From contig NJBH01000051.1 in NCBI GenBank assembly GCA_005223125.1, forward strand, positions 1 to 20,856: a stretch of DNA of 20,856 nucleotides. Direction: 5' to 3'. This DNA is from Promethearchaeota archaeon Loki_b32. GTDB lineage: Archaea; Asgardarchaeota; Lokiarchaeia; Sigyniarchaeales; SOKP01. Below, piece by piece: positions 2,377 through 20,855 of the stretch (positions are counted from its first letter, which is position 1; each line of letters starts with the position of its first letter). Both the position numbers and the translations under genes were made by a program. A model generated the notes under the pieces. That model did no database searches, was not told the DNA's origin, and saw nothing but the letters and a program-made list of their open reading frames with translations.

Positions 2377-2467
2377 AATTCAAAGAGTTCAAAAATTATG
2401 ATCATAGTTCAACTATAGTTCAAACTACATCTGAACTTTATGTAACAAAACTATATATTGAACTTCA
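2377..2467 (+). promoter_or_regulatory. promoter A: A(G/C)TTCA-like box array + TATA (AACTATATAT 2449-2458)
   Basis: AGTTCA at 2386, 2406 and 2417; ACTACA 2424; ACTTTA 2435; 8 nt gap to TATA; ACTTCA 2462. Same spacing as promoters B-D. Confidence 0.65.
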
Positions 2468-2549: not shown

Positions 2550-2819
2550 ATGGCTCAAGCAATAAGAAATAAGGATGTAAGAAAAAATTGTGTTGATGTC
2601 GAACATATTATTACAGAAGGTTTGATAAAACCCGAGAGGGAAGAGATTCGGGAAATAGTGGAGCCAAATCAATCTAGCGAGCTTAGCAAAAAGCTCTTAA
2701 AGTTTCATTCAAAATCTAAATATAATGCAAAATATCATCAAGAGTTAATTCCTTTTGAACGGGTTAAATACAAATTAACTTACAGGACTTACAGGAATTA
2801 TGCAATTAATTTAAATTAG
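2550..2819 (+). CDS. small hypothetical protein (89 aa), paralog of 12613..12822
   Basis: RBS GGAGTGA upstream. Shares PE.EE..E.VE, KK.LKF, AK.HQE.I and K......YR with 12613..12822. Confidence 0.8.
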   Translation: MAQAIRNKDVRKNCVDVEHIITEGLIKPEREEIREIVEPNQSSELSKKLLKFHSKSKYNAKYHQELIPFERVKYKLTYRTYRNYAINLN

Positions 2820-2862
2820 TAAAAAATAAAAAGAAAAAAAATGAAAAAGTGAGGTAAAAAAA

Positions 2863-2940
2863 ATGAGAAAAATGCGAGAAGCAATAATTATAATTAAAAA
2901 TGGTATTGTGAACTATAATCTAACTTATCTTAATCAATAA
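2863..2940 (+). CDS. micropeptide, 25 aa MRKMREAIIIIKNGIVNYNLTYLNQ
   Basis: RBS GAGGT at 2851-2855, ATG 2863, TAA 2938-2940, then a T-tract. Same position and similar composition as 12851..12940. Confidence 0.65.
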   Translation: MRKMREAIIIIKNGIVNYNLTYLNQ

Positions 2941-3022
2941 ATATTTTTTTTATTTTTATGAAAGACAAGCTACTGAGTAATTTACGATAATCAATCATTA
3001 TTATATCATCTCGAAAATAAAT

Positions 3023-3093
3023 CTTTTCCATTTCCGTATTAGAACGTAATGTGAGAAAATGGGGCGAGATTTTTACTCGCCCTAATTACATTA
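3023..3093 (+). other. conserved intergenic element copy 1 (CTTTTCCATTTCC + GGGCGAG-ATTTTTA-CTCGCCC hairpin)
   Basis: Stem 3062-3068/3076-3082; related copies at 7544-7595 and 12963-13013. Confidence 0.75.
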
Positions 3094-3121
3094 AAAATAA
3101 TAATTTAAATGGTGAAAATGT

Positions 3122-3301
3122 ATGGGTTTAGAAAAAATAAATTTTGTAGGTAGGTGCCATTGTCCAGAATGCAATGGTTTGTATATTATAATAGACAATG
3201 AAATTATTTCTTGTCCTGTATGTGAATTAAATTCACATGGAAATGTCTCAAAAATGTACGAAGAGGAAGCAGGAAAAGAAGTAGTTCAATATCAAGTTTA
3301 A
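3122..3301 (+). CDS. zinc-ribbon microprotein (59 aa; CPEC...CPVC)
   Basis: RBS GGTGA at 3111-3115. Translation MGLEKINFVGRCHCPECNGLYIIIDNEIISCPVCELNSHGNVSKMYEEEAGKEVVQYQV; below the ORF-track cut-off. Confidence 0.75.
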   Translation: MGLEKINFVGRCHCPECNGLYIIIDNEIISCPVCELNSHGNVSKMYEEEAGKEVVQYQV

Positions 3302-3348
3302 AGTTCAATGAAAGTTCATTTAGTTAATCTATATATAAAACAAGTTAT
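3283..3348 (+). promoter_or_regulatory. promoter B: AGTTCA box array + TATA (ATCTATATAT 3327-3336)
   Basis: AGTTCA 3283, AGTTTA 3295, AGTTCA 3302, AGTTCA 3313; 8 nt gap to TATA. Confidence 0.7.
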
Positions 3349-3392
3349 TTAAAATTAATAAAAAAAAGAATCTGTAAAATAGGTAATTAAAA

Positions 3393-4703
3393 ATGGAACA
3401 AACTCCAACGAAAAGGAATTTCAGGCATTATATGTATTTCTTATTTGGACAACAATTTTCAATGCTGGGATCAATGATAGTGGGTTTTGTAATTACATTC
3501 TGGCTCACTATAGAAACCGGTAGCACTGTGATCCTTTCAATTTCGGTGTTTTTGATGTTTCTACCGCAAATTATTATAACGCCATTCTCTGGTGTTATCG
3601 CTGACAGGTGGAATAAGAAGGCTATTATTGCCTTTACAGATTCGATGCAAGCAGGGGTAACCTTTTTACTATTTGTATTTTTTCTTTTTGACTTTCAAAA
3701 CATTTGGTTAATATTAGGTGTAAACACATTTAGGGCATCATTATATGCATTTCAATATCCTACAGTACAATCTCTCATTCCAACAATGGTTCCGAAGGAA
3801 AAATTAAGTAGGATAAATGGTATAAATTTCTTATTTTCAGGAGTAATTTTTAGTATAGGTCCATTGCTCGCAGCAACACTTTTAGCATTTTTTACAATTA
3901 ACCAAATTTTCTTTGTTGACATTATAACTTTTTTAATTGCTCTCGTCCCATTTCTGTTAATAAAAATACCTAAAGTACATCGAGTTACAGAAGAAGCTGC
4001 TAAGAAGTCAATGTTTAAGGATTTCAAAACAGGGTTATTAACAATCAAGATGATTCCAGGCTTGTTTGCTATGATTGCATTTGCGATGATATGGAATTTC
4101 ATTAGTAGACCCTGGGCAGTGTTGCTACCATACTTTATATTAATTACACATGAGGGAACGGCTTTCTCTTTAGCATTGTTAATGACTTCATCTCAAGCTG
4201 GAAATATTCTTGGATCACTTATTTGTTCAGTTAAGAAAAATTGGAAACACAAAATAAAACTGAACATAATTGGCTCATCAATATTTTTCATATGTCAAAT
4301 ACCTGCGATTCTTGCACCTAAAGGGAATTTCATTCTCATGATGATAGTTCTTTTTCCCGCATGGGTACTATTTCCAATTACAGTTTCCACATATTTAACT
4401 ATTTTGCAAACAGTTGTTTCTAAAGATAAAATTGGCAGAATTATGTCAATTGATCACATGATTTCAATGGCGATAGCTCCAATTGGAGCGCTTATTGCGG
4501 GACCATTAGCAGAAACCATTGGTATAATCAATTTGTTTTTTATTTTTGCGATTGTGGGTATGATATTTCCTTATATCATTTGGTTTTTCACAAAAATCAG
4601 ACAGCTTGAAATCATCGAAAGAGAAATTATCATGAAAACAGAGGAAGTTGTTGAATTAGAAGAAACTCCAGAAATTATTCAAGTTATTGAACCAATTGAA
4701 TAA
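3393..4703 (+). CDS. MFS transporter (DHA3/MefA-like exporter type)
   Basis: About 12 hydrophobic segments; GQQFSMLGS N-terminus; MFS motif A GVIADRWNKK; PTMVPKEKLSRING; GRIMS..H....AIAPIGALIAGPL. Confidence 0.92.
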   Translation: MEQTPTKRNFRHYMYFLFGQQFSMLGSMIVGFVITFWLTIETGSTVILSISVFLMFLPQIIITPFSGVIADRWNKKAIIAFTDSMQAGVTFLLFVFFLFDFQNIWLILGVNTFRASLYAFQYPTVQSLIPTMVPKEKLSRINGINFLFSGVIFSIGPLLAATLLAFFTINQIFFVDIITFLIALVPFLLIKIPKVHRVTEEAAKKSMFKDFKTGLLTIKMIPGLFAMIAFAMIWNFISRPWAVLLPYFILITHEGTAFSLALLMTSSQAGNILGSLICSVKKNWKHKIKLNIIGSSIFFICQIPAILAPKGNFILMMIVLFPAWVLFPITVSTYLTILQTVVSKDKIGRIMSIDHMISMAIAPIGALIAGPLAETIGIINLFFIFAIVGMIFPYIIWFFTKIRQLEIIEREIIMKTEEVVELEETPEIIQVIEPIE

Positions 4704-4801
4704 ATTTTTTTTTCTCTTTTATTTATAATCTCTTTTTAAAAAAATTTTCCAATTCGCCATAGAGCATTTATTTAAATAGATGATACTTCATTCCTTAAAT
4801 A

Positions 4802-5890
4802 ATGGAAGAATTTACTATTAATGAGTATCTTAGCTTAAGACTTGAAGACGAAACGACAAATATCTATGTAAACAACAAAAAAATCTTGCGATGTAAATAC
4901 ATTCTAATCGATATTCCTATTGAAACCTTAGACAATGATGAATTTGAATCTATTGATGAATATATTGATGAGTATAAAAAAGTTGAAGCAGAAACAAAAG
5001 AGAAAGCAAAAAAGCTTCCACCTGATGTGGAGTTCTGGGGTCATTGCTCCAACCTTCACTATTGGCACTTACAGCAATATGATACAAATATTATTCATCA
5101 CGAATTAGCGTTTCCCTTACTAAAAGCTCTTACCAAAGCAGGAGACCTAATAGCTAAAGCAAGGTTTAAAGATGAGATCGCGAAATGATTTGGAAGCGGA
5201 TATCCCTCAGTCATGAAATTCTTAGAAAAAGAAGGATACTTAGAGTACCTAAATGAAGGAGAGCTTATATTATGTGTAAAAGACGCACTCGAGAAGAGTT
5301 TAAGAAAATTGGATCATAAGGCTGTAGATTGGTTAATAATGTATTACGGAAATAAACTTAAAACACATTTCGGAAGGGAGGAATACCTAAATATTCTTTT
5401 AAACAAAAACGAGGCAGAAATCATCATCGAATTAGGAAAAATTATTGGTAAAGATATCATAATTGAAGAATATAGAATTGATAGACTACATATTTCAGGT
5501 CTTTCAGAAGAGTATAGAGATACTAAAAGAAACCCATTTACAGAGTACTCAATCGAAGTAGAAGATAAATTTGTCGTAAGGCTTAATTTGTCAGATTGTG
5601 GTCTAAATTCTTTTCCTAAAATTATAACTGAATTAATAAAATTAGAAACTCTAATTTTAAATGGAAATGAATTAAAAGAAATATCAAAATCAATTTTAGA
5701 CATGAAATATTTAAGATTTGTATCCATAGCTCGTTGTGGAATTCAAAACATCCCAAATTGGTTTAAAAACTTAAAACTTTTAAAAGGAATATATCTTTTA
5801 GAAGGAATAAATCTATCAGGCAATCCGTTAAATGAAAGAAGTAAAGAATTAATAAAAAATTTTAAAAATATTGAATACTGGGTAAATTAA
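4802..5890 (+). pseudogene. Lokiarchaeia-type leucine-rich repeat protein interrupted by an in-frame TGA at 5186-5188
   Basis: ORFs 4802..5188 and 5213..5890 are in the same frame: KDEIAK*FGSGYPSVMKFL. N-terminal EFTINEYLSLRLE...EFWGHCSNL...LAFPLLKAL domain; C-terminal LRRs (LNLSDCGLNSFP, LETLILNGNELKEIS, INLSGNPL). Confidence 0.85.
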
Positions 5891-6153
5891 TCAATCCATC
5901 CCTTTTCCCTATACTTATTAACCAAATAAGGATTGTCCAGTAAATCGACATAGTTAGGCCTAATATACTTGTCTAAATCGGAGCTATATATGATCAAAGT
6001 ACCTCCACCCCAGATAAGGTCCCATTCCTCATTCATTAGGTCAATAAAATCCTCTGTACTCATTTCAATTTCCTCCCCGAGAATAGTTGGATGCACCGTG
6101 CTAACATAATAGTTATTAAATACGAAGTTACCGAAATCCCAGAAATTGTCCAA
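5887..6153 (-). pseudogene. probable gene fragment (88 aa, TTG start, no RBS)
   Basis: Protein-like sequence in a visibly more GC-rich patch. The frame is open up to a stop at 6201-6199 with no ATG upstream of 6153. Its stop overlaps the LRR stop (TTAA). Confidence 0.35.
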
Positions 6154-6278
6154 GTTGCTAGGACTGTAGAGTAAGTTTTTTTTAATTTTTTTTATTCTTT
6201 AATTTTTTTTAAGTAATTTATAATTAATTTGAAGCCTTTTTCACTAAATCTCATTCTATAGGTAATAAATATTCTATA

Positions 6279-6381
6279 ACTTCAATTTCAGTTTCCAGTT
6301 CACTTCAAGTTCAATTATCAAATCTATTTATGTAATAAAATCTAATCTTTGATCAGAAAAGAACTTGGCATGGAAAGTTCG
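6279..6381 (+). promoter_or_regulatory. promoter C: A(G/C)TTCA box array + TATA (ATCTATTTAT 6322-6331)
   Basis: ACTTCA 6279, AGTTTC 6290, AGTTCA 6297, AGTTCA 6308; 8 nt gap to TATA; downstream GAACT 6361 and AGTTCG 6376. Confidence 0.7.
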
Positions 6382-6423
6382 AACAATAAATATTAAACGA
6401 AATCACTAAAATAGGTATATTAA

Positions 6424-7383
6424 ATGACAGAAAGACCAGAAACAGAAAAGGCTTTAATAGATAGTTTGAACTTAAAAGCTTCTGAGATAGCGGATTCGAA
6501 ATTTAAACTAATAGATAGAGTTATTCTAGATTTTGCACCAGAAATAGCATATATATACCAGATTCGGGAGGATAAATCAGAAGAACAACAGATAAAAACA
6601 GGACGTCTTCATGAAAATCGCATTTTAGGAATTTTTTTAAAATTTTATTTAGAAGGCAAAAAAAAAATTACCACAGGAGACGTTGAGGAGGAATATAGGC
6701 TATATTTTAGAGAGATTGCACGATCAACTACATCAACTTATTTAAACATGCTTAAAAATGAATCTATTTTATCCACAGAAAAAGATGGGAGAAAAGCTTA
6801 TTATTTTTTACATGAAGATCCCCCACTAGGGATCAAACCTTTTTGGTTTACACGAATTTTTTGTATAGTTCCTGTTTATTTTAATAGAGCGATGACTTTT
6901 TCTCATTTATACATTAATCCTGAAAAAGCCATACAGGATTACGTTAATCAATACGGAGGTAAAGATAAAAAAATTTTAGTAAAAAATTTCAAATTTATTA
7001 TAGGGCTAATATTATTAAATATTTTTAAAAATCGAAGTTCGAAGTGTATACTTTGTCAATTTAGTAAAAGGGAAATATATGAGAAATTGGAAGAAATAAT
7101 TAGTATTGCAATTAAAGATAGAACTGATGTTTTACCCGAGGATCTGGTGAATAATGTAATAAACAAGTATTCAGAAATACCAACGCTCAATGAAACTGAT
7201 AACGATATTATGGAAGAAATCACTACTCACATGTCAAGATATGCTGATATTTACAAAAGAGATATTGAATTTCAGGTTATGTTATCAGTTCGACGGCAAG
7301 ATTTACGGTTAAAACAAAAAAGGGCTTTAGAGGGAGATATGTTATCAGTTTTAATTGAGGAAAAAATCGAGAGAGGTGTATGA
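6424..7383 (+). CDS. winged-helix transcriptional regulator with uncharacterised C-terminal domain
   Basis: RILGIFLKFYLEGKKKITTGDVEEEY...IARSTTSTYLNMLKNESILSTEKDGRKAYYFL is a wHTH with wing; a CILC motif occurs later. Confidence 0.75.
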   Translation: MTERPETEKALIDSLNLKASEIADSKFKLIDRVILDFAPEIAYIYQIREDKSEEQQIKTGRLHENRILGIFLKFYLEGKKKITTGDVEEEYRLYFREIARSTTSTYLNMLKNESILSTEKDGRKAYYFLHEDPPLGIKPFWFTRIFCIVPVYFNRAMTFSHLYINPEKAIQDYVNQYGGKDKKILVKNFKFIIGLILLNIFKNRSSKCILCQFSKREIYEKLEEIISIAIKDRTDVLPEDLVNNVINKYSEIPTLNETDNDIMEEITTHMSRYADIYKRDIEFQVMLSVRRQDLRLKQKRALEGDMLSVLIEEKIERGV

Positions 7384-7526
7384 AAATTAATAAGATTAAA
7401 TTAAATTGTATGATATGTGGGAAGGAAATCAAATTAAATTTTAATTCTATTACGGCGATATGTAAGAAATGTCAGAAAACCCGTGAGAAAACCCTTATTT
7501 ATGAACCATTTTTCCTATCAGAATAA
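7380..7526 (+). CDS. zinc-ribbon microprotein (48 aa; CMICG...CKKC)
   Basis: RBS GAGGTG and ATGA overlap with the stop of 6424..7383. Translation MKINKIKLNCMICGKEIKLNFNSITAICKKCQKTREKTLIYEPFFLSE. Confidence 0.8.
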   Translation: MKINKIKLNCMICGKEIKLNFNSITAICKKCQKTREKTLIYEPFFLSE

Positions 7527-7543
7527 TAATTTAATTTATTTTA

Positions 7544-7595
7544 CTTTTTCATTTCCAAATTATAAGAGAGAGATTTTTACTCGCCTTTAAGTTTT
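7544..7595 (+). other. conserved intergenic element copy 2 (degenerate 5' arm)
   Basis: CTTTTTCATTTCCAAATTATAAGAGAGAGATTTTTACTCGCCTTTAAGTTTT; shares GAGATTTTTACTCGCC exactly with copy 1. Confidence 0.7.
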
Positions 7596-7686
7596 ACAAA
7601 AAAACTATTAGTTATTTTGATTTTTCATGATTTTGAATTTCTCAAATTAGAGCAAACTCTACTTAGAAGAAAATATAATTTATGTT

Positions 7687-7777
7687 AAGTTGTGAAATTT
7701 TTTACACTATAATTATGTTTAAATACTCTATTAGATTTTATATTCTTAGAAAGTTGTGAAAAAAAAATACACAACTT
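7687..7777 (+). promoter_or_regulatory. two operator-like dyads flanking the thioredoxin TATA box
   Basis: Perfect AAGTTGTG-N11-CACAACTT at 7751-7777; imperfect AAGTTGTG-N10-CACTATAA at 7687-7712; TTTAAATA at 7718-7725 between them. Confidence 0.7.
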
Positions 7778-7806
7778 ATTTAAGAATTTTAAAATGTGAA
7801 AAACGA

Positions 7807-8211
7807 ATGCAAGAAGTAGATGAGAAATTAGAAATGTTGAGAAGTAAAAAAGCTGAAGCTTTATTAAAACATCAAAAAATGCCAGAGAGTGTTATAAAGG
7901 TAAACTCTGTAGAAGAATTTAACAAAATCTTAAAAGATTACCCTGATAAAATAATTATTATAGATTTTTGGGCAGTTTGGTGTGGCCCTTGCATGTTCTT
8001 CGCTCCAATTTTCAAAAAACTTCATGAAGAATTTCAAAACGACTTTATATTTCTTAAGGTTAATGTTGATGAAAACCCTTCCGTAGCAATGAAATACCAG
8101 ATAACCGGAATCCCAACAACGTTATTCATTAAAAATGGAGAAATTGTAAATAAGATTGTTGGAGCCATGAATTATGATGGAATGAAAAAAGTATTAGTAA
8201 AGTTAAAGTAA
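7807..8211 (+). CDS. trxA: thioredoxin
   Basis: DFWAVWCGPC active site and ITGIPT cis-Pro loop. ATG 7807 (MQEVDEKLEMLRSKK, archaeal-type N-terminal helix) is preferred over GTG 7756, which lies inside the operator palindrome. Confidence 0.95.
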   Translation: MQEVDEKLEMLRSKKAEALLKHQKMPESVIKVNSVEEFNKILKDYPDKIIIIDFWAVWCGPCMFFAPIFKKLHEEFQNDFIFLKVNVDENPSVAMKYQITGIPTTLFIKNGEIVNKIVGAMNYDGMKKVLVKLK

Positions 8212-8274
8212 TAAACTCGTTAAACTAGTTCTTTTTTTATTTATATTCTTTTTATAATTTTAAGGTAATGATTA

Positions 8275-8739
8275 ATGGAAGTAATAGAAAAACAATTAAA
8301 AGAATTTGAATTAATAGATGGATTATTGGAGAAAAAAGAAATCTTTTCTAGTGAACGATTATTCAAATGTATTTTAGGTTTAAATAAAACAGAATCGAAG
8401 GTACTTGGATATATGTTAAAAAATAAAGATGTAAGAACATCTGAAATTGCAAATGCATTAAAGATGGATAGAAGCTCAATTCAAAGAGCTGTTCAAGGTT
8501 TATCTGAGTTAAAACTCATTGATCGTAAATCAATGTCGATGAAAGATTATACTGCTACAAAAGAACTAAAAGATGCCAAAAAACAAGGGTATCTCTATGT
8601 TTATAATGCAAAGAACATGGAATCCATAAAAATTCAATTAAAAAAACTGTTAGATAAATGGTACAATTCAATGTTAAAATACATTAAAAATCTTGAAAAT
8701 CTCTGCGAATGTTGTGGTTTCAAATTTGAACCATGTTAA
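8275..8739 (+). CDS. HTH transcriptional regulator (TrmB/COG3355-like) with Cys-rich C-terminus
   Basis: FKCILGLNKTESKVL...SEIANALKMDRSSIQRAVQGLSELKLIDR...GYLYVY; C-terminal CECCGFKFEPC. Confidence 0.85.
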   Translation: MEVIEKQLKEFELIDGLLEKKEIFSSERLFKCILGLNKTESKVLGYMLKNKDVRTSEIANALKMDRSSIQRAVQGLSELKLIDRKSMSMKDYTATKELKDAKKQGYLYVYNAKNMESIKIQLKKLLDKWYNSMLKYIKNLENLCECCGFKFEPC

Positions 8740-8775
8740 ACATTTTGATAGATATAAGAAAAAATTAGTCATAAG

Positions 8776-9447
8776 TTAGAACATATAAATTACGTTAAAA
8801 GGGAGATTTTCCAATATTTCTTTAAGATCTTCTTTAAATTCTTTCGAAACAGGTTCAAAACCATCTAAAGTATAATTACTGACAGAATAATGATCTGGCA
8901 TGACTTCTAATAAGAATTCTTTTAATTTTTCCACATTTTTAATGTTATCATTAATACCCTTCAAAAACATTGTATAGATCCCTAATTTACCATTAAAATT
9001 TTTGCTAAATTCTATAATTCCTTCTAATACATCCATTGAGTTTATGGATTCAGGACATTTATTAATTTTTGAAAACTGAAAGTTATTAACGCTATTGAGA
9101 TTGATGGCAACCAAGTCACATCCATAAAAAATATTTCGAACGTCTTCATCTTGAAAGATTCCACAATTTAAATAAATACCAATTTTTTGTTTTGGATATA
9201 CCGCCTTAATCATTTTTGTAATTAGTTTAAATTTTGAAGGGTTTATGGTGTTGGTTATTCCCTTAAACCAAATTAAACTTGGAATCCCTCGAACTTTAAT
9301 ACAATCTCTAATTTCATTAAAAATTTCTTCAGTAATGTTAATCAAGTCTGAATCTTCAGAACTAGAGCTGAAATCAACTGATAAAAGAGTTCCAAAATTA
9401 AAATTAAACTCAAACGCTTTTACGTATCTGTAATCCATTAAGATCAC
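8776..9447 (-). CDS. radical-SAM-like partial TIM barrel lacking CxxxCxxC (COG0731-like C-terminal part)
   Basis: IGIYLNCGIF, DLVAINLNSV...FSKINKC and GKLGIYTMFLKGINDN..NVEKLKEFL..VMPD resemble the radical SAM core. No three-Cys motif is present. Located 14 nt downstream of the TPR gene. Confidence 0.6.
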   Translation of the reverse strand: MILMDYRYVKAFEFNFNFGTLLSVDFSSSSEDSDLINITEEIFNEIRDCIKVRGIPSLIWFKGITNTINPSKFKLITKMIKAVYPKQKIGIYLNCGIFQDEDVRNIFYGCDLVAINLNSVNNFQFSKINKCPESINSMDVLEGIIEFSKNFNGKLGIYTMFLKGINDNIKNVEKLKEFLLEVMPDHYSVSNYTLDGFEPVSKEFKEDLKEILENLPFNVIYMF

Positions 9448-9461
9448 ATTCTGTATTTGGA

Positions 9462-12425
9462 TTATTCAATATCTTTCGATTCTCCTAGTAATGCCTTAAC
9501 TTCAGAAATCAATTTCTCTACTTTAGGTAGGTATTTAGATGTATGACTAGGATGCATCTTTTCAGTCAATTTTTTCCCTCGTTCATAATATTCAAGCGCT
9601 TTTTCAATCTTTTCAAGTTTTTTAAAACATTCTCCCATTTTTAAGCAAGTTTCAAAAGCAAACCATCCTGAAGGTTCGAGATTCAAAGCTTCTCTAAATT
9701 TTTCAAGAGCATTTTCGTACTCTTCAAAAATCATTAATATTTCACCGTATGTATCATAAGAATTTCCATATTTAGGATTAAGACTTATTAGATATTCAGC
9801 AGTTTCAATGGCTTCCTCTCTTCTTCTTAAATGCCCTAACATATATGCTTTATTGTTTATAATATTAGTATCTCGTGGAAATAATTTAAGTGCTTCATCA
9901 GTAGTTTTTAAACCTTCATCATATTGTTGTTGATGGACCTGAATATACGATTTTAGTAAGAGAAGATTTCTTTTTAAAGTGGGGTGGCTTTCTAACAATT
10001 CATGAATTAAATCCAAAGCTTCATCTTCTCTCTTGGAAGTTAATAGAAAGTAAGCTTTCCTAGCATATAGAGGATGTAGTGTTGGAACCAACTCAATTGC
10101 ACTATCAACAGAGTCAATAGATTCATCGTATTTTTTAAGCCCATTTAAAATGTGTGCTTGCAATAGAAGATACTTTATTTTATTATATTTAATAGGCTCA
10201 AAAGAGATTGTAAGCTTTATTAATTCAATAAATATATCAATATTTGGCTCTTTAAATGTAAATTTATAAATTAAATTATAACCAAGTACTAAAGCTTTAG
10301 TGAGAAATGAAATGGGATGATCAGGATAAAGTGTTAAAACGAGATTAGCAATTTCTAAAGATTTATCAAATTTACCACGTGCTAAATAGGAGTAAGTTAA
10401 AATGAAATACGCAATTGTATCAATTCTGGGATTCTTTTTAAAATTATTGATATCAATTCCTCCTGTAATTACTCTCTTCGCTTCTTTATATTTATTGATC
10501 AGACAATAGTATAAACTTTTCAAAAGCAGAATATCTTGATCAGTTGGATTCAATATGGTTAATTGATTTATTACCTCTAAAGGTTTATTATAATCCTTTA
10601 CTAGTGACATCCAATGAGAAATATATACTATGTATTTTGCTTTTAATAGTGCGGTATTATCAGGATATTGAGATAATAAATCCTCAATATCATCAAGTAC
10701 TTTATCTCCTTGATATACCCTAATTAAAATTTGAGCTTTTTGGCATGTTAAGAGAACATTTGGTGTTATCTCTAATGCCTCCTCTATAATTTCTAAAGAT
10801 TTCTCATAATTATCCATTGAAAAGTAAGTTATTGATTGGAATAAGTATCCTATGAAATCATTTGGATATTTTTGAATAATTTCATTAGTAATTTTAACTG
10901 ATTCAATTAAATCATTTTCTGCTGTCGCTATAATATCTTTTAAAATTAATTGATTAATGGTTTTTAACTTAGTATTACTATTCTGATATAGCTCCTTTGC
11001 TTTAGAAACTTTATTCCCATTTAAATTTTTTACAACTTTATTATAGATATCTAATTTATTCAAATTGTATGTCTTCTGAATTTCATTTGTATTCAAGAAA
11101 TTTAATTTGGATAGAAACATAATATCTAAAGCATTGAAGATATTGGGCTCCAAAGCATAATAATACTCATCCTCCTCTCCAGCTATTGGTAGGCTTGAAG
11201 GTTCAAAAGTTTGGAATTCTTCCTTAATATTCTGCCAAACAAAACCTTCTAATTTTGCTTCACTATCAACTAATTTTTTCTCAGTCTCAATTTTATATGC
11301 TAAATATCTAATGTACCCAGGTAAGAATGTTTTTAATGAAGGTTTCAGATGTTCATTGAATAGGTTACCACAAATATCATCTAAGATTTTATCTAATAGC
11401 AATTCTACATCTATCGTCGTAGTTTCATGAAATTTATTTAAATATGTTAATTTTATAATATGTTTTTCTACAATCGCCTTAAGAACTTTCTCAACTGTCT
11501 CATTCTTTTGAAAATAATAAGTTCCCCCTTGCTCATCCTTCATAATAAAGAATTTAATGTCAAAAAATTCATTGTCTACTATCTCTCTTATATAATAATC
11601 TAATGTAGTTCTATCAATCTTGTACTTCAACGAGAAGTCTTTGGTTGAAATAAACTCAGGATATTGAGCAGGATGATTAATCGAAAGGAACAATAAAATT
11701 TTATTAAAGTCCTCCTCATCTTTTAGCATCGCTTCCACTTTAGAATAAGACAACTTCAAGATATGATCAAGATATTGATATTTTAATTCATCATCCTCTA
11801 TTTTATATTTCTTAAAGAATCTACTAGTTTTTTCTGTAATTTCTTCAATTCTCTTGCTTTCCTGTTCCAAAATAGACTGACGATCCAAATCATAGGATTT
11901 CAATATTCTAAGATATTCTGTCTTTCCTAACGGTGTTATTATATATTCTTTATTATCTCTTGAAATAAATCCCCCATCTATTAATGAATTTAAATTATTT
12001 GATAAAGAGGATTGATTAATTAACAGCGGTTCTTGTTTAAAGTCTGACCATTTACATGAATAATTATTATAGAGCATCCATAAAATCCAATGATCATAAT
12101 TCCTAAATTTGAGAATTGTTTTTGGTGGAAATTTCAATCTCCTCTGCCCGGATTTTCTATCATAGACTAACTCACTATACCGATCTCGCCCTTGTGGAGT
12201 AATTCGATATTTCCCCTTTTCAGGCTTCTCAATATAATCTTTATTCAAAAGTTTTTTTAAATTGCCTGATAAAGTTGATTCACTTATTTCAGCAGTAAAA
12301 GCGGACCACTCACAAATATTATTGTTGCTGAGCATCCATAATATTACATATTCAAAATCAGTTTTCCCCATAATGGGGTTTAATATCTCTCCAGGAGGAT
12401 ATAAGACTCCCTCTGATCTACTCAT
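9462..12425 (-). CDS. tandem winged-helix + TPR-repeat protein (987 aa)
   Basis: Two N-terminal wHTH repeats (ILWML.NN..C.WS.F....I..S.LS.NL..L.....I......Y.ITP.G...Y) and a possible third HTH (FSLKYKIDRTTLDYYIREI). The C-terminal half is TPRs, e.g. NSYDTYGEILMIFEEYENALEKFREALNLEP. Confidence 0.88.
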   Translation of the reverse strand: MSRSEGVLYPPGEILNPIMGKTDFEYVILWMLSNNNICEWSAFTAEISESTLSGNLKKLLNKDYIEKPEKGKYRITPQGRDRYSELVYDRKSGQRRLKFPPKTILKFRNYDHWILWMLYNNYSCKWSDFKQEPLLINQSSLSNNLNSLIDGGFISRDNKEYIITPLGKTEYLRILKSYDLDRQSILEQESKRIEEITEKTSRFFKKYKIEDDELKYQYLDHILKLSYSKVEAMLKDEEDFNKILLFLSINHPAQYPEFISTKDFSLKYKIDRTTLDYYIREIVDNEFFDIKFFIMKDEQGGTYYFQKNETVEKVLKAIVEKHIIKLTYLNKFHETTTIDVELLLDKILDDICGNLFNEHLKPSLKTFLPGYIRYLAYKIETEKKLVDSEAKLEGFVWQNIKEEFQTFEPSSLPIAGEEDEYYYALEPNIFNALDIMFLSKLNFLNTNEIQKTYNLNKLDIYNKVVKNLNGNKVSKAKELYQNSNTKLKTINQLILKDIIATAENDLIESVKITNEIIQKYPNDFIGYLFQSITYFSMDNYEKSLEIIEEALEITPNVLLTCQKAQILIRVYQGDKVLDDIEDLLSQYPDNTALLKAKYIVYISHWMSLVKDYNKPLEVINQLTILNPTDQDILLLKSLYYCLINKYKEAKRVITGGIDINNFKKNPRIDTIAYFILTYSYLARGKFDKSLEIANLVLTLYPDHPISFLTKALVLGYNLIYKFTFKEPNIDIFIELIKLTISFEPIKYNKIKYLLLQAHILNGLKKYDESIDSVDSAIELVPTLHPLYARKAYFLLTSKREDEALDLIHELLESHPTLKRNLLLLKSYIQVHQQQYDEGLKTTDEALKLFPRDTNIINNKAYMLGHLRRREEAIETAEYLISLNPKYGNSYDTYGEILMIFEEYENALEKFREALNLEPSGWFAFETCLKMGECFKKLEKIEKALEYYERGKKLTEKMHPSHTSKYLPKVEKLISEVKALLGESKDIE

Positions 12426-12471
12426 AATGAATCACGGTTTCTTCTATAAGATCTTATTTTATATTTATATT

Positions 12472-12559
12472 AGTTCACTATCCTTTTAAGCTTTTCACTT
12501 CGGAGTAAAGTATGAACTTCACATGAAGTGCGAAGTGCGAATCTATATAATGGAGTTCG
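12472..12559 (+). promoter_or_regulatory. promoter D (divergent region): box array + TATA (ATCTATATAA 12541-12550)
   Basis: AGTTCA 12472, ACTTCG 12497, ACTTCA 12516, AGTGCG 12527; 8 nt gap to TATA; AGTTCG 12554. Confidence 0.65.
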
Positions 12560-12612
12560 ATCTATCTTTTCTTAAGAAAAAATAAAAAAAAATAGAAAAG
12601 TGATAAAAGAAT

Positions 12613-12822
12613 ATGGAACAAGTTTTTGAAAAAGAACCCTTTTATATTGTACTTCCTGAAATTGAGGAAAAAGCAGAAAAAGTTGAGGAGAAACCAAAAG
12701 AGATCAAAAAGAAACTTAAATTTAGGAAACACGCCAAGCAGCATCAAGAGAGAATCGATATTAATAAAATAAGGAATAAAATGAATGCAAGCCGATACAG
12801 AGCAACTCTCTACAATCGATAA
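12613..12822 (+). CDS. small hypothetical protein (69 aa), paralog of 2550..2819
   Basis: Acidic N-half, basic C-half; shared motifs PEIEEKAEKVE, KKKLKF, HAKQHQERI and RYR. Confidence 0.8.
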   Translation: MEQVFEKEPFYIVLPEIEEKAEKVEEKPKEIKKKLKFRKHAKQHQERIDINKIRNKMNASRYRATLYNR

Positions 12823-12850
12823 TTAAAATTTAAGTTGGAGGTTGTTAAAA

Positions 12851-12940
12851 ATGCGTGTTAAACGAATGAAGAAAAAGATGAGGTTAATAATAATTACGAA
12901 TGATAAGGGAAGATATCATTCGCGATATATAACTTATTAA
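12851..12940 (+). CDS. micropeptide, 29 aa MRVKRMKKKMRLIIITNDKGRYHSRYITY
   Basis: Strong RBS GGAGGT at 12837-12842, ATG 12851, TAA 12938-12940, then a T-tract. Counterpart of 2863..2940. Confidence 0.7.
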   Translation: MRVKRMKKKMRLIIITNDKGRYHSRYITY

Positions 12941-12962
12941 AATTTTTTTTTACGATTATTTT

Positions 12963-13013
12963 CTTTTCCATTCCTAAATTAAGGGGTGAGATTTTTTCTC
13001 ACCCTCTAATTTA
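12963..13013 (+). other. conserved intergenic element copy 3 (CTTTTCCATTCC + GGGTGAG-ATTTTTT-CTCACCC hairpin)
   Basis: Stem 12984-12990/12998-13004, extended by TAAATTA (12975-12981)/TAATTTA (13007-13013). C-G to T-A compensatory change relative to copy 1. Confidence 0.75.
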
Positions 13014-18337: not shown

Positions 18338-20005
18338 TTATAATTGTTCCTCCTTATTATTTGATATTTTTTCAATTTTTTCAACTTGATCATCTTGAGT
18401 ACTCTCAAGTACTAAAATATTCTTACTTTTATTAAAATTATGCTTGATAATATCCTCTCTTTTATTAACTAATATTGATTTTTTTATTTTTCCTTTTTTA
18501 ACTCCTTTCTTTAATTTTCTTATTTTTCTTACCAATGGAGGATATTTAAAATGAATTTGATAAAAACTAAAAACGGTAATAATACCAATAATTCCTGCAG
18601 TTAAGGTATAAACAAGCCAACTCCAATCAGGACCTTTTTCTATTGGTTCATCTGGTTCGATAATAATATAAGATATGTCGAGAGAGACATCATCAATTGC
18701 AATAGTTATGTTTTGATCCAATACAAAATCATCCGCAAGATACACTTGAAGTGATAAATTAACATCATCTGTAATTAAATTTGAAACATCAAAACCACCA
18801 ACTTTAGCTTCCTGAAGGGATGTGGTGGCAGTACTTAATTTGATAGGTTCTGTGTGTTTATTATTATTAATTAGAACCCTTATTTCGGAATTAGGAGATA
18901 ATGAAGTATTCCATAATTGTTCAATTTTATAATTAAAATTAAGAGTGGCATTTTGAACTATAACGGGATATTCACTTAGATCGCTGATTTTATCACAATT
19001 TTGTTTCCAGGAGATAGAAGTAAATCGGTTAATATTTTTCTCATACTGGAATGTAAGATTACAGGATTTAATGAGTAGTGAATAATATGTATCTCTATCT
19101 GCTTCACCATAATTATCTTCAACATCAATATCAATCCCTAGAAAAATTGTGAAATTATAATTATCAAAATCTAACACCTTGCTCAAATAGAATTTCAATA
19201 CTTCTTTTGGTACAGGAGTCATATAAGTGTTTCCAATAGAATTTTCCACACCATCACTCGGAGAATTATCACCGGCAGGAAGATCTCCAAATCCCAAATT
19301 ACGAGGAATATAACGAGCTACTTCATTTCTATCTTCTTGTTCTATATCTGAAAGAAGGACATAGAAAGTTACATGATCATATTCTGCTGCGGTTGGATTA
19401 GTTCCAGTTAAATTATCAAGAGGAGTTTCTACATTTGTATTTGCAGTTCCATTGAATAATGCTGATATCTGTGCTGAAGTAATAGAGTAATCACTCATAT
19501 CATGCGGCATTGTGATAATTCTTCTCCATAATACACTTGGTCGATTACGAGTTTGATTGCCCATTACACCATATATATTTGGAGTTGAAGATTCCCAATA
19601 TTCATGCGATGCGTTACAGCCATATTGATTAATTTCAAATAAGTCAGGGTAAATGGAATCACCAGGTTTCTTTGTTGGAGTCCAATCTGAAGCACTTGGA
19701 GTGCCTGAAATGTTCGAAAAAGTCCAATATTCTCCAATGATTTTAAAATTTGCTTGATTCCCACTGATCTTTCCATCAACATCTGTAACATCTCCTTCAG
19801 ATTCCATAAACCAAAAATCTTGAGACCCGAAACCTGAATTATTTACCCATTGTATCTCTCCGGGAATTTCCGCAGCTAAGTGAAGAGTATTTTGTTTCAA
19901 GTTATTAATAAACAATGTTGTAGTATTTATTGAAATATTTATAAAAATGAGAGTAAAGATGAATGTAAAAATTAATAAGGAATATTTTAATTTTTGTTTA
20001 TTCAT
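18338..20005 (-). CDS. single-pass cell-surface protein (signal peptide, beta-rich N-glycosylatable ectodomain, TM helix, basic tail)
   Basis: N-terminal MNKQKLKYSLLIFTFIFTLIFI; many N-x-S/T sequons; TM WSWLVYTLTAGIIGIITVFSFY followed by HFKYPPLVRKIRKLKK. Confidence 0.85.
   Translation of the reverse strand: MNKQKLKYSLLIFTFIFTLIFINISINTTTLFINNLKQNTLHLAAEIPGEIQWVNNSGFGSQDFWFMESEGDVTDVDGKISGNQANFKIIGEYWTFSNISGTPSASDWTPTKKPGDSIYPDLFEINQYGCNASHEYWESSTPNIYGVMGNQTRNRPSVLWRRIITMPHDMSDYSITSAQISALFNGTANTNVETPLDNLTGTNPTAAEYDHVTFYVLLSDIEQEDRNEVARYIPRNLGFGDLPAGDNSPSDGVENSIGNTYMTPVPKEVLKFYLSKVLDFDNYNFTIFLGIDIDVEDNYGEADRDTYYSLLIKSCNLTFQYEKNINRFTSISWKQNCDKISDLSEYPVIVQNATLNFNYKIEQLWNTSLSPNSEIRVLINNNKHTEPIKLSTATTSLQEAKVGGFDVSNLITDDVNLSLQVYLADDFVLDQNITIAIDDVSLDISYIIIEPDEPIEKGPDWSWLVYTLTAGIIGIITVFSFYQIHFKYPPLVRKIRKLKKGVKKGKIKKSILVNKREDIIKHNFNKSKNILVLESTQDDQVEKIEKISNNKEEQL
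18641..19077. repeat. direct repeat copy 1 (partner 20355-20791, offset 1714)
   Basis: Includes a 106-bp identical block (18921-19026 = 20635-20740) and a 97-bp block with one mismatch (18720-18816). Confidence 0.9.
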
Positions 20006-20855
20006 TATTATCCTCCTTATTTTGTGATTCTACATTACTTCCAATATTATCTTCCTTAAGATTTGCTTTCATTGTTTTAGTTTTACTATATGCTTCTGAA
20101 TCTTTTAATTGAGGCTGTCCATAATCAATAATTTCTAATTCATTTTGGATATTAGATTTAATGAGCTCTTCTCTATTATTTAATAAAATTGGTTTAACTT
20201 TTCTTCCCTTTCTTATTTTCTTTTTCAAATTTCTTATTTTTCTAACCATTGGTGGGTACTTGAAATGTAATTGATATGAGCCAAAAACAACAATAATACC
20301 ACCAATAGCAGCAATTAAAGTGTAAACTAACCAGCTCATATCTGTTCCTGGTGTTATTGGTTCATCTGGTTCGATAATAACATAAGAAATATCAAGAGAG
20401 ACATCATCAATTGAAACAGATATGTTTTGATCTAATACAAAATCATCCGCAAGATACACTTGAAGTGATAAATTAACGTCATCTGTAATTAAATTTGAAA
20501 CATCAAAACCACCAACTTTAGCTTCCTGAAAGGAAGTAGTAGCAGTACTTAATTTGACAGTTTCTGTATGTTTATTATCATTAATTAAAATCCTAATCTC
20601 AGAATTTGGAGATAATGAAGTATTCCATAATTGATCAATTTTATAATTAAAATTAAGAGTGGCATTTTGAACTATAACGGGATATTCACTTAGATCGCTG
20701 ATTTTATCACAATTTTGTTTCCAGGAGATAGAAGTAAATCTGTTTATCTTTTTCTCATAATCGAATGAAAGATTACAGGATTTAATGAGTAAATAATACC
20801 ATGTGTCAATCTCAGCATTAGCATAATTATCTTCATTATAAATATCGATACCTAG
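19998..20855 (-). CDS. paralogous single-pass cell-surface protein, 5' end outside the window
   Basis: The frame stays open to the window edge (LGIDIYNEDNYANAEIDTWYYLLIKSCNLSFD...) and aligns with 18338..20005, so the track start at 20459 is internal. Confidence 0.85.
   Translation of the reverse strand, partial: LGIDIYNEDNYANAEIDTWYYLLIKSCNLSFDYEKKINRFTSISWKQNCDKISDLSEYPVIVQNATLNFNYKIDQLWNTSLSPNSEIRILINDNKHTETVKLSTATTSFQEAKVGGFDVSNLITDDVNLSLQVYLADDFVLDQNISVSIDDVSLDISYVIIEPDEPITPGTDMSWLVYTLIAAIGGIIVVFGSYQLHFKYPPMVRKIRNLKKKIRKGRKVKPILLNNREELIKSNIQNELEIIDYGQPQLKDSEAYSKTKTMKANLKEDNIGSNVESQNKEDNNE
20355..20791. repeat. direct repeat copy 2 (partner 18641-19077)
   Basis: Direct alignment by eye of the two paralogous coding segments. 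Confidence 0.9.

Follow-up and report, generated by a model that had tools for sequence, protein, structure and literature searches.

Two small charged proteins encoded 10 kb apart in the genome of Promethearchaeota archaeon Loki_b32, a member of the Lokiarchaeia, are distant homologues, and the short operons that encode them derive from a module that was duplicated together with a large, divergently transcribed regulator carrying two wHTH domains and a TPR solenoid. The window (the whole stretch of 20,856 nucleotides analyzed; coordinates without a contig name refer to it) is very AT-rich and belongs to a 4.13 Mb genome of 71 contigs with 29.9% G+C. A first-pass annotation had proposed two diverged paralogous cassettes here, A and B, each with a small gene followed by a micro-ORF. 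That proposal held, and four observations are added to it: the duplicated unit includes the divergent wHTH-TPR gene, cassette A has lost that neighbor in this genome, a broken third copy of the small-protein gene is present on another contig, and the micro-ORF is common in the module without being universal.

Proteins A and B belong to one small-protein family

Both reading frames were present as described, that of protein A (89 aa) at 2550-2819 and that of its paralogue, protein B (69 aa), at 12613-12822, both on the plus strand; these ORF calls are accompanied by 33 database relatives for A and 24 for B. The acidic N-half and basic C-half claimed for both proteins were borne out by net charges of -3/-2 (A being weakly acidic) vs +9. 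Across the family, the N-half is variable and acidic, and the conserved basic C-terminus has a helix-break-helix form with an AKxHQExI motif. A and B are hydrophilic (GRAVY -0.9 and -1.3, respectively) with hydrophobic runs of three residues or fewer. When the two micro-ORF peptides described below were scanned together with them, the longest hydrophobic run per product was 3-5 residues, and no 15-residue stretch averaged above 1.03 on the Kyte-Doolittle scale. As none of the four has a hydrophobic stretch of more than five residues, they lack signal peptides and membrane helices. Low-confidence AF2 models place helices at residues 42-66 and 69-88 of A (pLDDT 69.6, pTM 0.25) and at residues 15-48 and 50-68 of B (pLDDT 64, pTM 0.25). 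In both models the helix break directly follows the shared motif and the N-half is poorly ordered. The A and B products are cytosolic, charged, and helical. We considered whether the Qxx(I/L) motif might be a PIP box and rejected this, as the aromatic pair is absent from the family alignment (A4, inspected by eye).

Compared by BLASTP alone, A and B gave a marginal match (E 0.003 across 24 residues). Both are rich in lysine and glutamate, and G+C makes up 30% of the genome. These facts would suit an explanation in which the ORFs are not genes or their likeness arose by chance from composition. The tests run have essentially refuted that explanation. The Smith-Waterman score of A against B was 75 (z 6.7 over global shuffles), and none of 2000 such shuffles reached it. 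Shuffles that kept local composition in blocks of 8-35 residues gave z values of 5.2-6.7, with at most 0.03% of 4000 reaching the A/B score, indicating that the acidic-N/basic-C layout is not the cause of the similarity. The alignment thus withstood the composition-preserving shuffles that the first-pass annotation had named as its check (z about 5 and above). A comparison of the A profile with the B profile by hhalign gave E 2.4e-5 and a probability of 76% over 26 C-terminal columns, and one locus (G010:C373) was matched by both profiles. Sequences that bridge the two types were found in genus-mates (L033, L037, and others), where a B-like N-terminus is joined to an A-like C-terminal motif. 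With these intermediates included, alignment A4 is colinear for all types from a conserved M-x-Q start to a C-terminal Tyr. The dozens of conserved orthologues and their common flanking architecture argue in the same direction. As the first-pass annotation had remarked, DNA identity between the two cassettes is low; its claim that the layout has been retained under selection agrees with the conserved orthologues, the coding-like micro-ORFs, and the promoter phasing common to both cassettes. On these sequence grounds, we consider A and B to be distant homologues within one colinear family and regard their homology as established.

When 1.84 billion representative proteins were searched with a profile, 67 clusters (50% identity) were returned, all composed of stand-alone proteins of 42-108 aa. 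Among whole genomes, 78 of the 126 in the same GTDB family had a match (43/49 in the own genus and 28/40, 4/5, and 2/7 in three others), and the 24 genomes from other families of the class gave one weak match. Genomes with the family carry one to three copies. Nearly all genomes found to carry the small-protein family belong to a single GTDB family of the Lokiarchaeia. The database relatives of A and B come from Lokiarchaeia/Promethearchaeota metagenome assemblies, where every one named by its source is called 'hypothetical', and a search for loci related to a second alignment (A2) likewise returned names of Promethearchaeota MAGs only.

The family had been reported as unrecognized, and so it remained. 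No Pfam or NCBIfam family matches the small proteins, PHROGs gave no significant match (best E 0.02-0.04), nor did a profile search of the PDB (best E 0.035), Foldseek with the A model (pTM 0.25) returned no PDB match, and the best ESM Atlas score (0.88, to unnamed clusters) fell below the lead threshold. A description of the family was also not found in the literature.

A third paralogue is located on contig C37 of the same genome (G000 C37:18986-19237, minus strand; L002), with no micro-ORF downstream. It has an in-frame TGA, one base from TTA, at a position where the intact orthologues shown in alignment A4 have Leu, and is therefore either a pseudogene or an assembly error. The same two facts led us to judge selenocysteine at this codon unlikely. 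The broken gene is separated by 1.5 kb from a TPR paralogue, an interval that holds a gene for a Ras/Rab-like small GTPase (C37:19710-20267).

A conserved micro-ORF frequently follows the small-protein gene

As the first-pass annotation had described, each small-protein gene is followed by a micro-ORF with a ribosome-binding site, a T-tract, and a hairpin (all on the plus strand), and all of these elements were present at both A and B. After a 43-nt spacer, micro-ORF A (2863-2940) encodes a conserved 25-aa peptide having a basic head, an Ile run, and a Tyr-spaced tail. Its Shine-Dalgarno-like site (2851-2855) has equivalents before the orthologous micro-ORFs, and its stop codon is directly followed by T-tracts (2944-2957), a T8 (2944-2951) and then a T5. 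The spacer after B is 28 nt, and micro-ORF B (12851-12940; 29 aa counted from the ATG) has a Shine-Dalgarno-like site at 12837-12842, a strongly conserved C-terminal heptad, and a T9 tract at 12943-12951. A T-tract follows each orthologous micro-ORF and is likely to be an archaeal terminator. The peptides fall into three subtypes, all with a basic head, a run of 3-4 Ile residues, and a polar Tyr-containing tail, and all encoded between a strong ribosome-binding site and a T-tract.

Differences among orthologues were counted by codon position (1/2/3) as 99/103/214 for the B-type and 38/62/88 for the A-type, and invariant residues are encoded by varying synonymous codons. This third-position excess together with the synonymous codons at invariant residues indicates coding selection on the micro-ORFs. 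It also bears on the idea that the micro-ORF is a leader, in which ribosome pausing on the Ile run by the T-tract would tune termination or read-through into downstream genes (the zinc-finger ORFs, the 59-aa zinc ribbon, and the MFS gene discussed below). The invariant 3-4 Ile codons do end 10-20 codons before a stop that abuts the T-tract, and same-strand genes follow in A-type loci. We nevertheless think a leader very unlikely: residues beyond the Ile run, such as those of the B-type C-terminal heptad, are conserved with synonymous change, cassette B has no same-strand gene downstream, and solo copies of the micro-ORF exist. To our knowledge, leader-peptide attenuation has not been established in archaea.

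A micro-ORF was found in 9/10 A-type loci of the own genus, 6-7/7 core B-type loci, 2/6 intermediate loci, and 3/20 loci of other genera in the same GTDB family. These counts and the solo copy indicate that the micro-ORF is a frequent accessory rather than an invariant core component. The micro-ORF synteny foreseen by the first-pass annotation therefore holds mostly within the genus and breaks down in the other genera. The solo copy in this genome (C70:564-641, minus strand) encodes the third peptide subtype behind an A-rich leader of its own and likewise has its own T-tract. No small-protein gene precedes it, and the repeated boxes flanking it are of a different kind (TACACAC-like).

The small-protein gene is linked to a divergent double-wHTH-TPR regulator

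The divergent partner of cassette B is a gene on the minus strand (9462-12425) encoding a 987-aa protein with Pfam matches to two wHTH domains and, at residues of about 476-951, to TPR_2 (E 1.7e-21) and many other TPR models. The intergenic region shared by this gene and cassette B is 187 nt. In relatives, the small-protein gene similarly lies ~150-230 nt from a divergent paralogue of the double-wHTH-TPR gene. Such a neighbor was present at 29/43 loci assessed: at 8/11 A- and C-type loci of the own genus, at 11/12 of the assessable B-type and intermediate loci (where the orthologues are 75-85% identical), and at 10/20 loci in other genera, two more of which have the gene within 1.3 kb.

A tree of the N-terminal 400 residues of the TPR proteins resolved three groups with SH-aLRT values of 97-100: a grade of A-linked sequences, a B-linked clade, and a clade whose members go with the third peptide subtype. 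As these groups track the small-protein and peptide subtypes, all three components diverged together and the module was duplicated as a whole, on our reading before the genus radiated. Its parts have since been maintained by vertical descent.

In this genome, cassette A now lies behind unrelated genes. An A-linked wHTH-TPR orthologue was observed on another contig (C65:8975-11374, minus strand), where it has kept its half of the intergenic region with a pentamer-box array (11375-11520) but has no A gene alongside. A regulator with boxes and without a small-protein gene indicates that a rearrangement split module A here. Three relatives (L005, L008, and L011) also have an A-type gene with no adjacent TPR gene.

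A separate observation concerns six loci of another genus (L058, L059, L061, L062, L065, and L069), in which one subfamily of the small protein was never TPR-linked in our sample. It is regularly found ~0.5 kb from a divergent gene for a 57-60 aa protein with many CxxC pairs, which may be an alternative partner of this subfamily.

A phased box promoter precedes both cassettes

Both small genes had been said to lie behind a box promoter, and the same phasing (box-N6-box-N8-TATA) was indeed found at A and B. Promoter A (2424-2457, plus strand) consists of two degenerate pentamer boxes and a TATA-like element, spaced by N6 and N8; it lies 126 nt upstream of the ATG as found with a loose regex pattern, and its phasing is kept in orthologous intergenic regions. 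Promoter B (12497-12551, plus strand), which lies in the 187 nt between cassette B and the TPR gene, combines a TATA-like element with pentamer boxes in both inverted and direct orientation. An intergenic array of direct and inverted pentamer boxes just before a TATA-like element is conserved across genera.

The window holds four copies of the phased pattern (2424-2457, 3302-3335, 6297-6330, and 12516-12549), preceding A, an MFS gene, a gene for a 319-aa wHTH protein (6424-7383), and B. Nine copies were found genome-wide, all 84-160 nt before an ORF, and none in shuffled genomes; those outside the window are at C4:43833, C21:193167, C43:1394, C47:40377, and C65:8787. The ORFs behind the nine promoters include two MFS-type transporters and the gene that immediately follows the C65 TPR paralogue. 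This set of nine looks like a small regulon.

The operons end in a structured 3' element

The T-tract of each operon is followed by a 3' element consisting of a conserved 20-nt box, common to A and B, and a GC-rich hairpin (families D8 and D12). Element A (3022-3082, plus strand) has its box at 3022-3041 and a hairpin with a 7-bp GC stem at 3062-3082. In element B (12962-13004, plus strand), the box at 12962-12981 precedes an 8-bp hairpin at 12984-13004 that differs from hairpin A by a compensated C-G to T-A change. The element marks the operon end of both module types; in 14 loci the complementarity of the stem is kept, although its sequence is wholly different between lineages. Within this genome, the element occurs in the window only, as two full copies and a degenerate third (7543-7585). 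A strict regex found no other copy in the genome, which rules out a genome-wide repeat or MITE. Rfam at its gathering threshold gave no match in the window, leaving the 3' element without a family.

Several small genes were observed around these elements. Relatives (L026-L038) have one or two copies of a 35-50 aa CxxCG...CxxC microprotein after their cassettes. The window has a single copy of this microprotein family, a 48-aa zinc-finger ORF (7380-7526) that overlaps the stop codon of the gene for the 319-aa wHTH protein, with the degenerate 3' box and hairpin behind it. A 59-aa zinc-ribbon ORF (3122-3301) lies immediately after the A hairpin and is found in the same place, before the MFS gene, in at least seven relatives. 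An MFS_3-type transporter gene is located downstream of A in 9/10 A-type loci. Elsewhere in the window, two adjacent ORFs on the minus strand (one of 555 aa, the other of 285+ aa and running past the window end) contain a 300-nt direct repeat of 76% identity (18437-18736 and 20151-20450). These ORFs are tandem paralogues without a Pfam match, and hence Pfam assigns them no function.

A proposed regulatory circuit

We propose that the module encodes a cytosolic circuit of regulator and small protein, a reading we hold tentatively and at a little below an even chance. It builds on the observed homology, coding conservation, promoter and 3' architecture, TPR linkage, and parallel divergence. The putative operon would start at the phased pentamer-box promoter, encode the small protein first and then a peptide of 22-30 aa, with one or two CxxC zinc-finger microproteins in relatives, and end at the T-tract and the box-plus-hairpin 3' element. 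The ancestral unit would have comprised this operon and the divergently transcribed double-wHTH-TPR regulator, and would have been duplicated whole. The wHTH-TPR protein is predicted to bind the boxes of the shared intergenic region and thereby control the operon. The small protein and/or the peptide might in turn act intracellularly on the TPR solenoid as ligand, co-factor, or antagonist, and such an action of the products on their regulator would close a feedback circuit. Note that linkage and parallel divergence are also expected from vertical inheritance of neighboring genes and hence are no proof of interaction. A also persists intact in this genome without an adjacent TPR gene, which speaks against the circuit, as do the three relatives with the same arrangement, the subfamily that was never TPR-linked, and the low confidence of both structure models. 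Moreover, as the box promoter drives genes unrelated to the module, the factor that binds the boxes could be another wHTH protein such as that of 319 aa.

A bolder form of the proposal is that of an archaeal receptor-ligand circuit in which the giant double-wHTH-TPR factor senses the divergently encoded small protein or micro-peptide. Sensing could be intracellular or could follow export by the linked MFS transporter, and the duplicated receptor/ligand pairs would be orthogonal channels. We think this form unlikely, if by no means negligible.

The small basic proteins might instead be effectors that bind nucleic acid (chromatin, RNA, or the 3' hairpin) and thus be regulon targets that do not touch the TPR regulator. 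The +9 charge and predicted helices of the C-half, the co-encoded basic zinc-finger microproteins, and the conserved structured element at the operon end would all fit such a role, as would the finding that the weak PDB profile matches (E 0.035-1.7) are all to extended ribosome- or RNA-associated proteins. However, those matches are not significant and are probably compositional, and Foldseek against the PDB found no known nucleic-acid-binding fold. The persistence of TPR paralogues beside the gene through duplication would also be left unexplained. We therefore consider nucleic-acid-binding effectors an unlikely alternative, though one to be taken seriously.

Gene regulation has hardly been explored in the Asgard archaea, most of whose small proteins lack annotation. 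The present analysis defines a new family of small proteins together with a conserved micro-peptide, the recurrent and duplicating partnership between the small protein and a large regulator of the wHTH-TPR type, a compact code used by about nine promoters of this genome, and a 3' RNA-like element. The module is self-contained and experimentally tractable, with an operator, a regulator, and candidate ligands that can be tested. Should the TPR domain read the small products, the logic of peptide-sensing TPR regulators would extend from the Bacillota to the Archaea. We found no description of archaeal RRNPP-like systems in the literature. If the receptor-ligand circuit does exist, Archaea would gain their first described TPR regulator system that senses peptides, and would do so in the lineage nearest to eukaryotes.

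Comparison with known systems

The closest known sequences are 'hypothetical proteins' of Lokiarchaeota/Promethearchaeota MAGs in NCBI, which are direct orthologues of 44-88% identity; none has a name, domain, or function attached. Archaeal micro-proteins, such as the CxxC proteins of Haloferax volcanii, are thought to bind larger partners. Like the archaeal zinc-finger micro-proteins, which annotation often misses, the members of the A/B family are very small, basic, and stand-alone, and relatives of the module physically include CxxC microproteins. In contrast, the A/B family lacks a cysteine motif and has no detectable homology to a described micro-protein family.

In layout, the module resembles the RRNPP systems. 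Their signature has five points, namely a small propeptide, its secretion, receptor size, TPRs, and adjacency of the two genes (PMC10075063). The propeptide is of 10-100 aa, the receptor is of 250-500 aa, and secretion uses either a Sec signal peptide or, for an SHP-type hydrophobic peptide, PptAB (PMC10075063). The products of the module (89, 69, 25, and 29 aa) fall within the propeptide size range, the 987-aa protein has the TPRs (TPR_2 E 1.7e-21), and the genes are adjacent (187 nt apart at B, and neighbors at 29/43 loci), cassette A of this genome being an exception. The hydrophobicity scan of the four products gave no indication of secretion, and the receptor length of 987 aa is far from 250-500 aa. 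Given these two departures and a DNA-binding part of another class, the module is not a member of the RRNPP group and would share with it at most a similar principle.

These data also weigh on the possibility of true RRNPP-like signaling between cells, in which either the peptide from the micro-ORF or part of the small protein would be exported, for example by the MFS transporter encoded after A-type cassettes, and sensed by the TPR receptor. A receptor with TPRs and DNA-binding domains beside a small ORF (across a 187-nt gap), the tracking of receptor clades by peptide subtypes, and the MFS_3-type transporter in 9/10 A-type loci would be expected of such signaling. However, the products have neither a signal peptide nor an SHP-like hydrophobic tail, the receptor is too long, no importer was seen nearby, and the MFS gene is under its own box promoter. 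In addition, most modules outside the genus have no micro-ORF, the constant partner being the 70-90 aa protein. Cell-cell signaling of this type is therefore quite unlikely.

The RRNPP(A) pairs (Rgg/SHP, PlcR/PapR, PrgX, and AimR/AimP) are those of Bacillota and their phages, and sequence homology is not part of their likeness to the module, which is one of layout only. As in those pairs, a cytoplasmic regulator made of a DNA-binding domain and a TPR solenoid is encoded beside a small ORF, which in RRNPP systems is of 10-100 aa and divergent in some subfamilies. Likewise, the subtypes of receptor and small ORF diversify together, and pairs multiply by duplication. The differences are that the module is archaeal, that its DNA-binding part has two winged helices rather than an XRE-type HTH, that its receptor, at about 990 aa, exceeds the 250-500 aa range, that a Sec signal and an SHP-like hydrophobic tail are missing from both small products, and that its constant partner is a charged helical protein of 70-90 aa. 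Judged by its gene layout, the module may be best seen as a variation on the theme of a TPR regulator plus an adjacent small ORF, built with a new family of small proteins.
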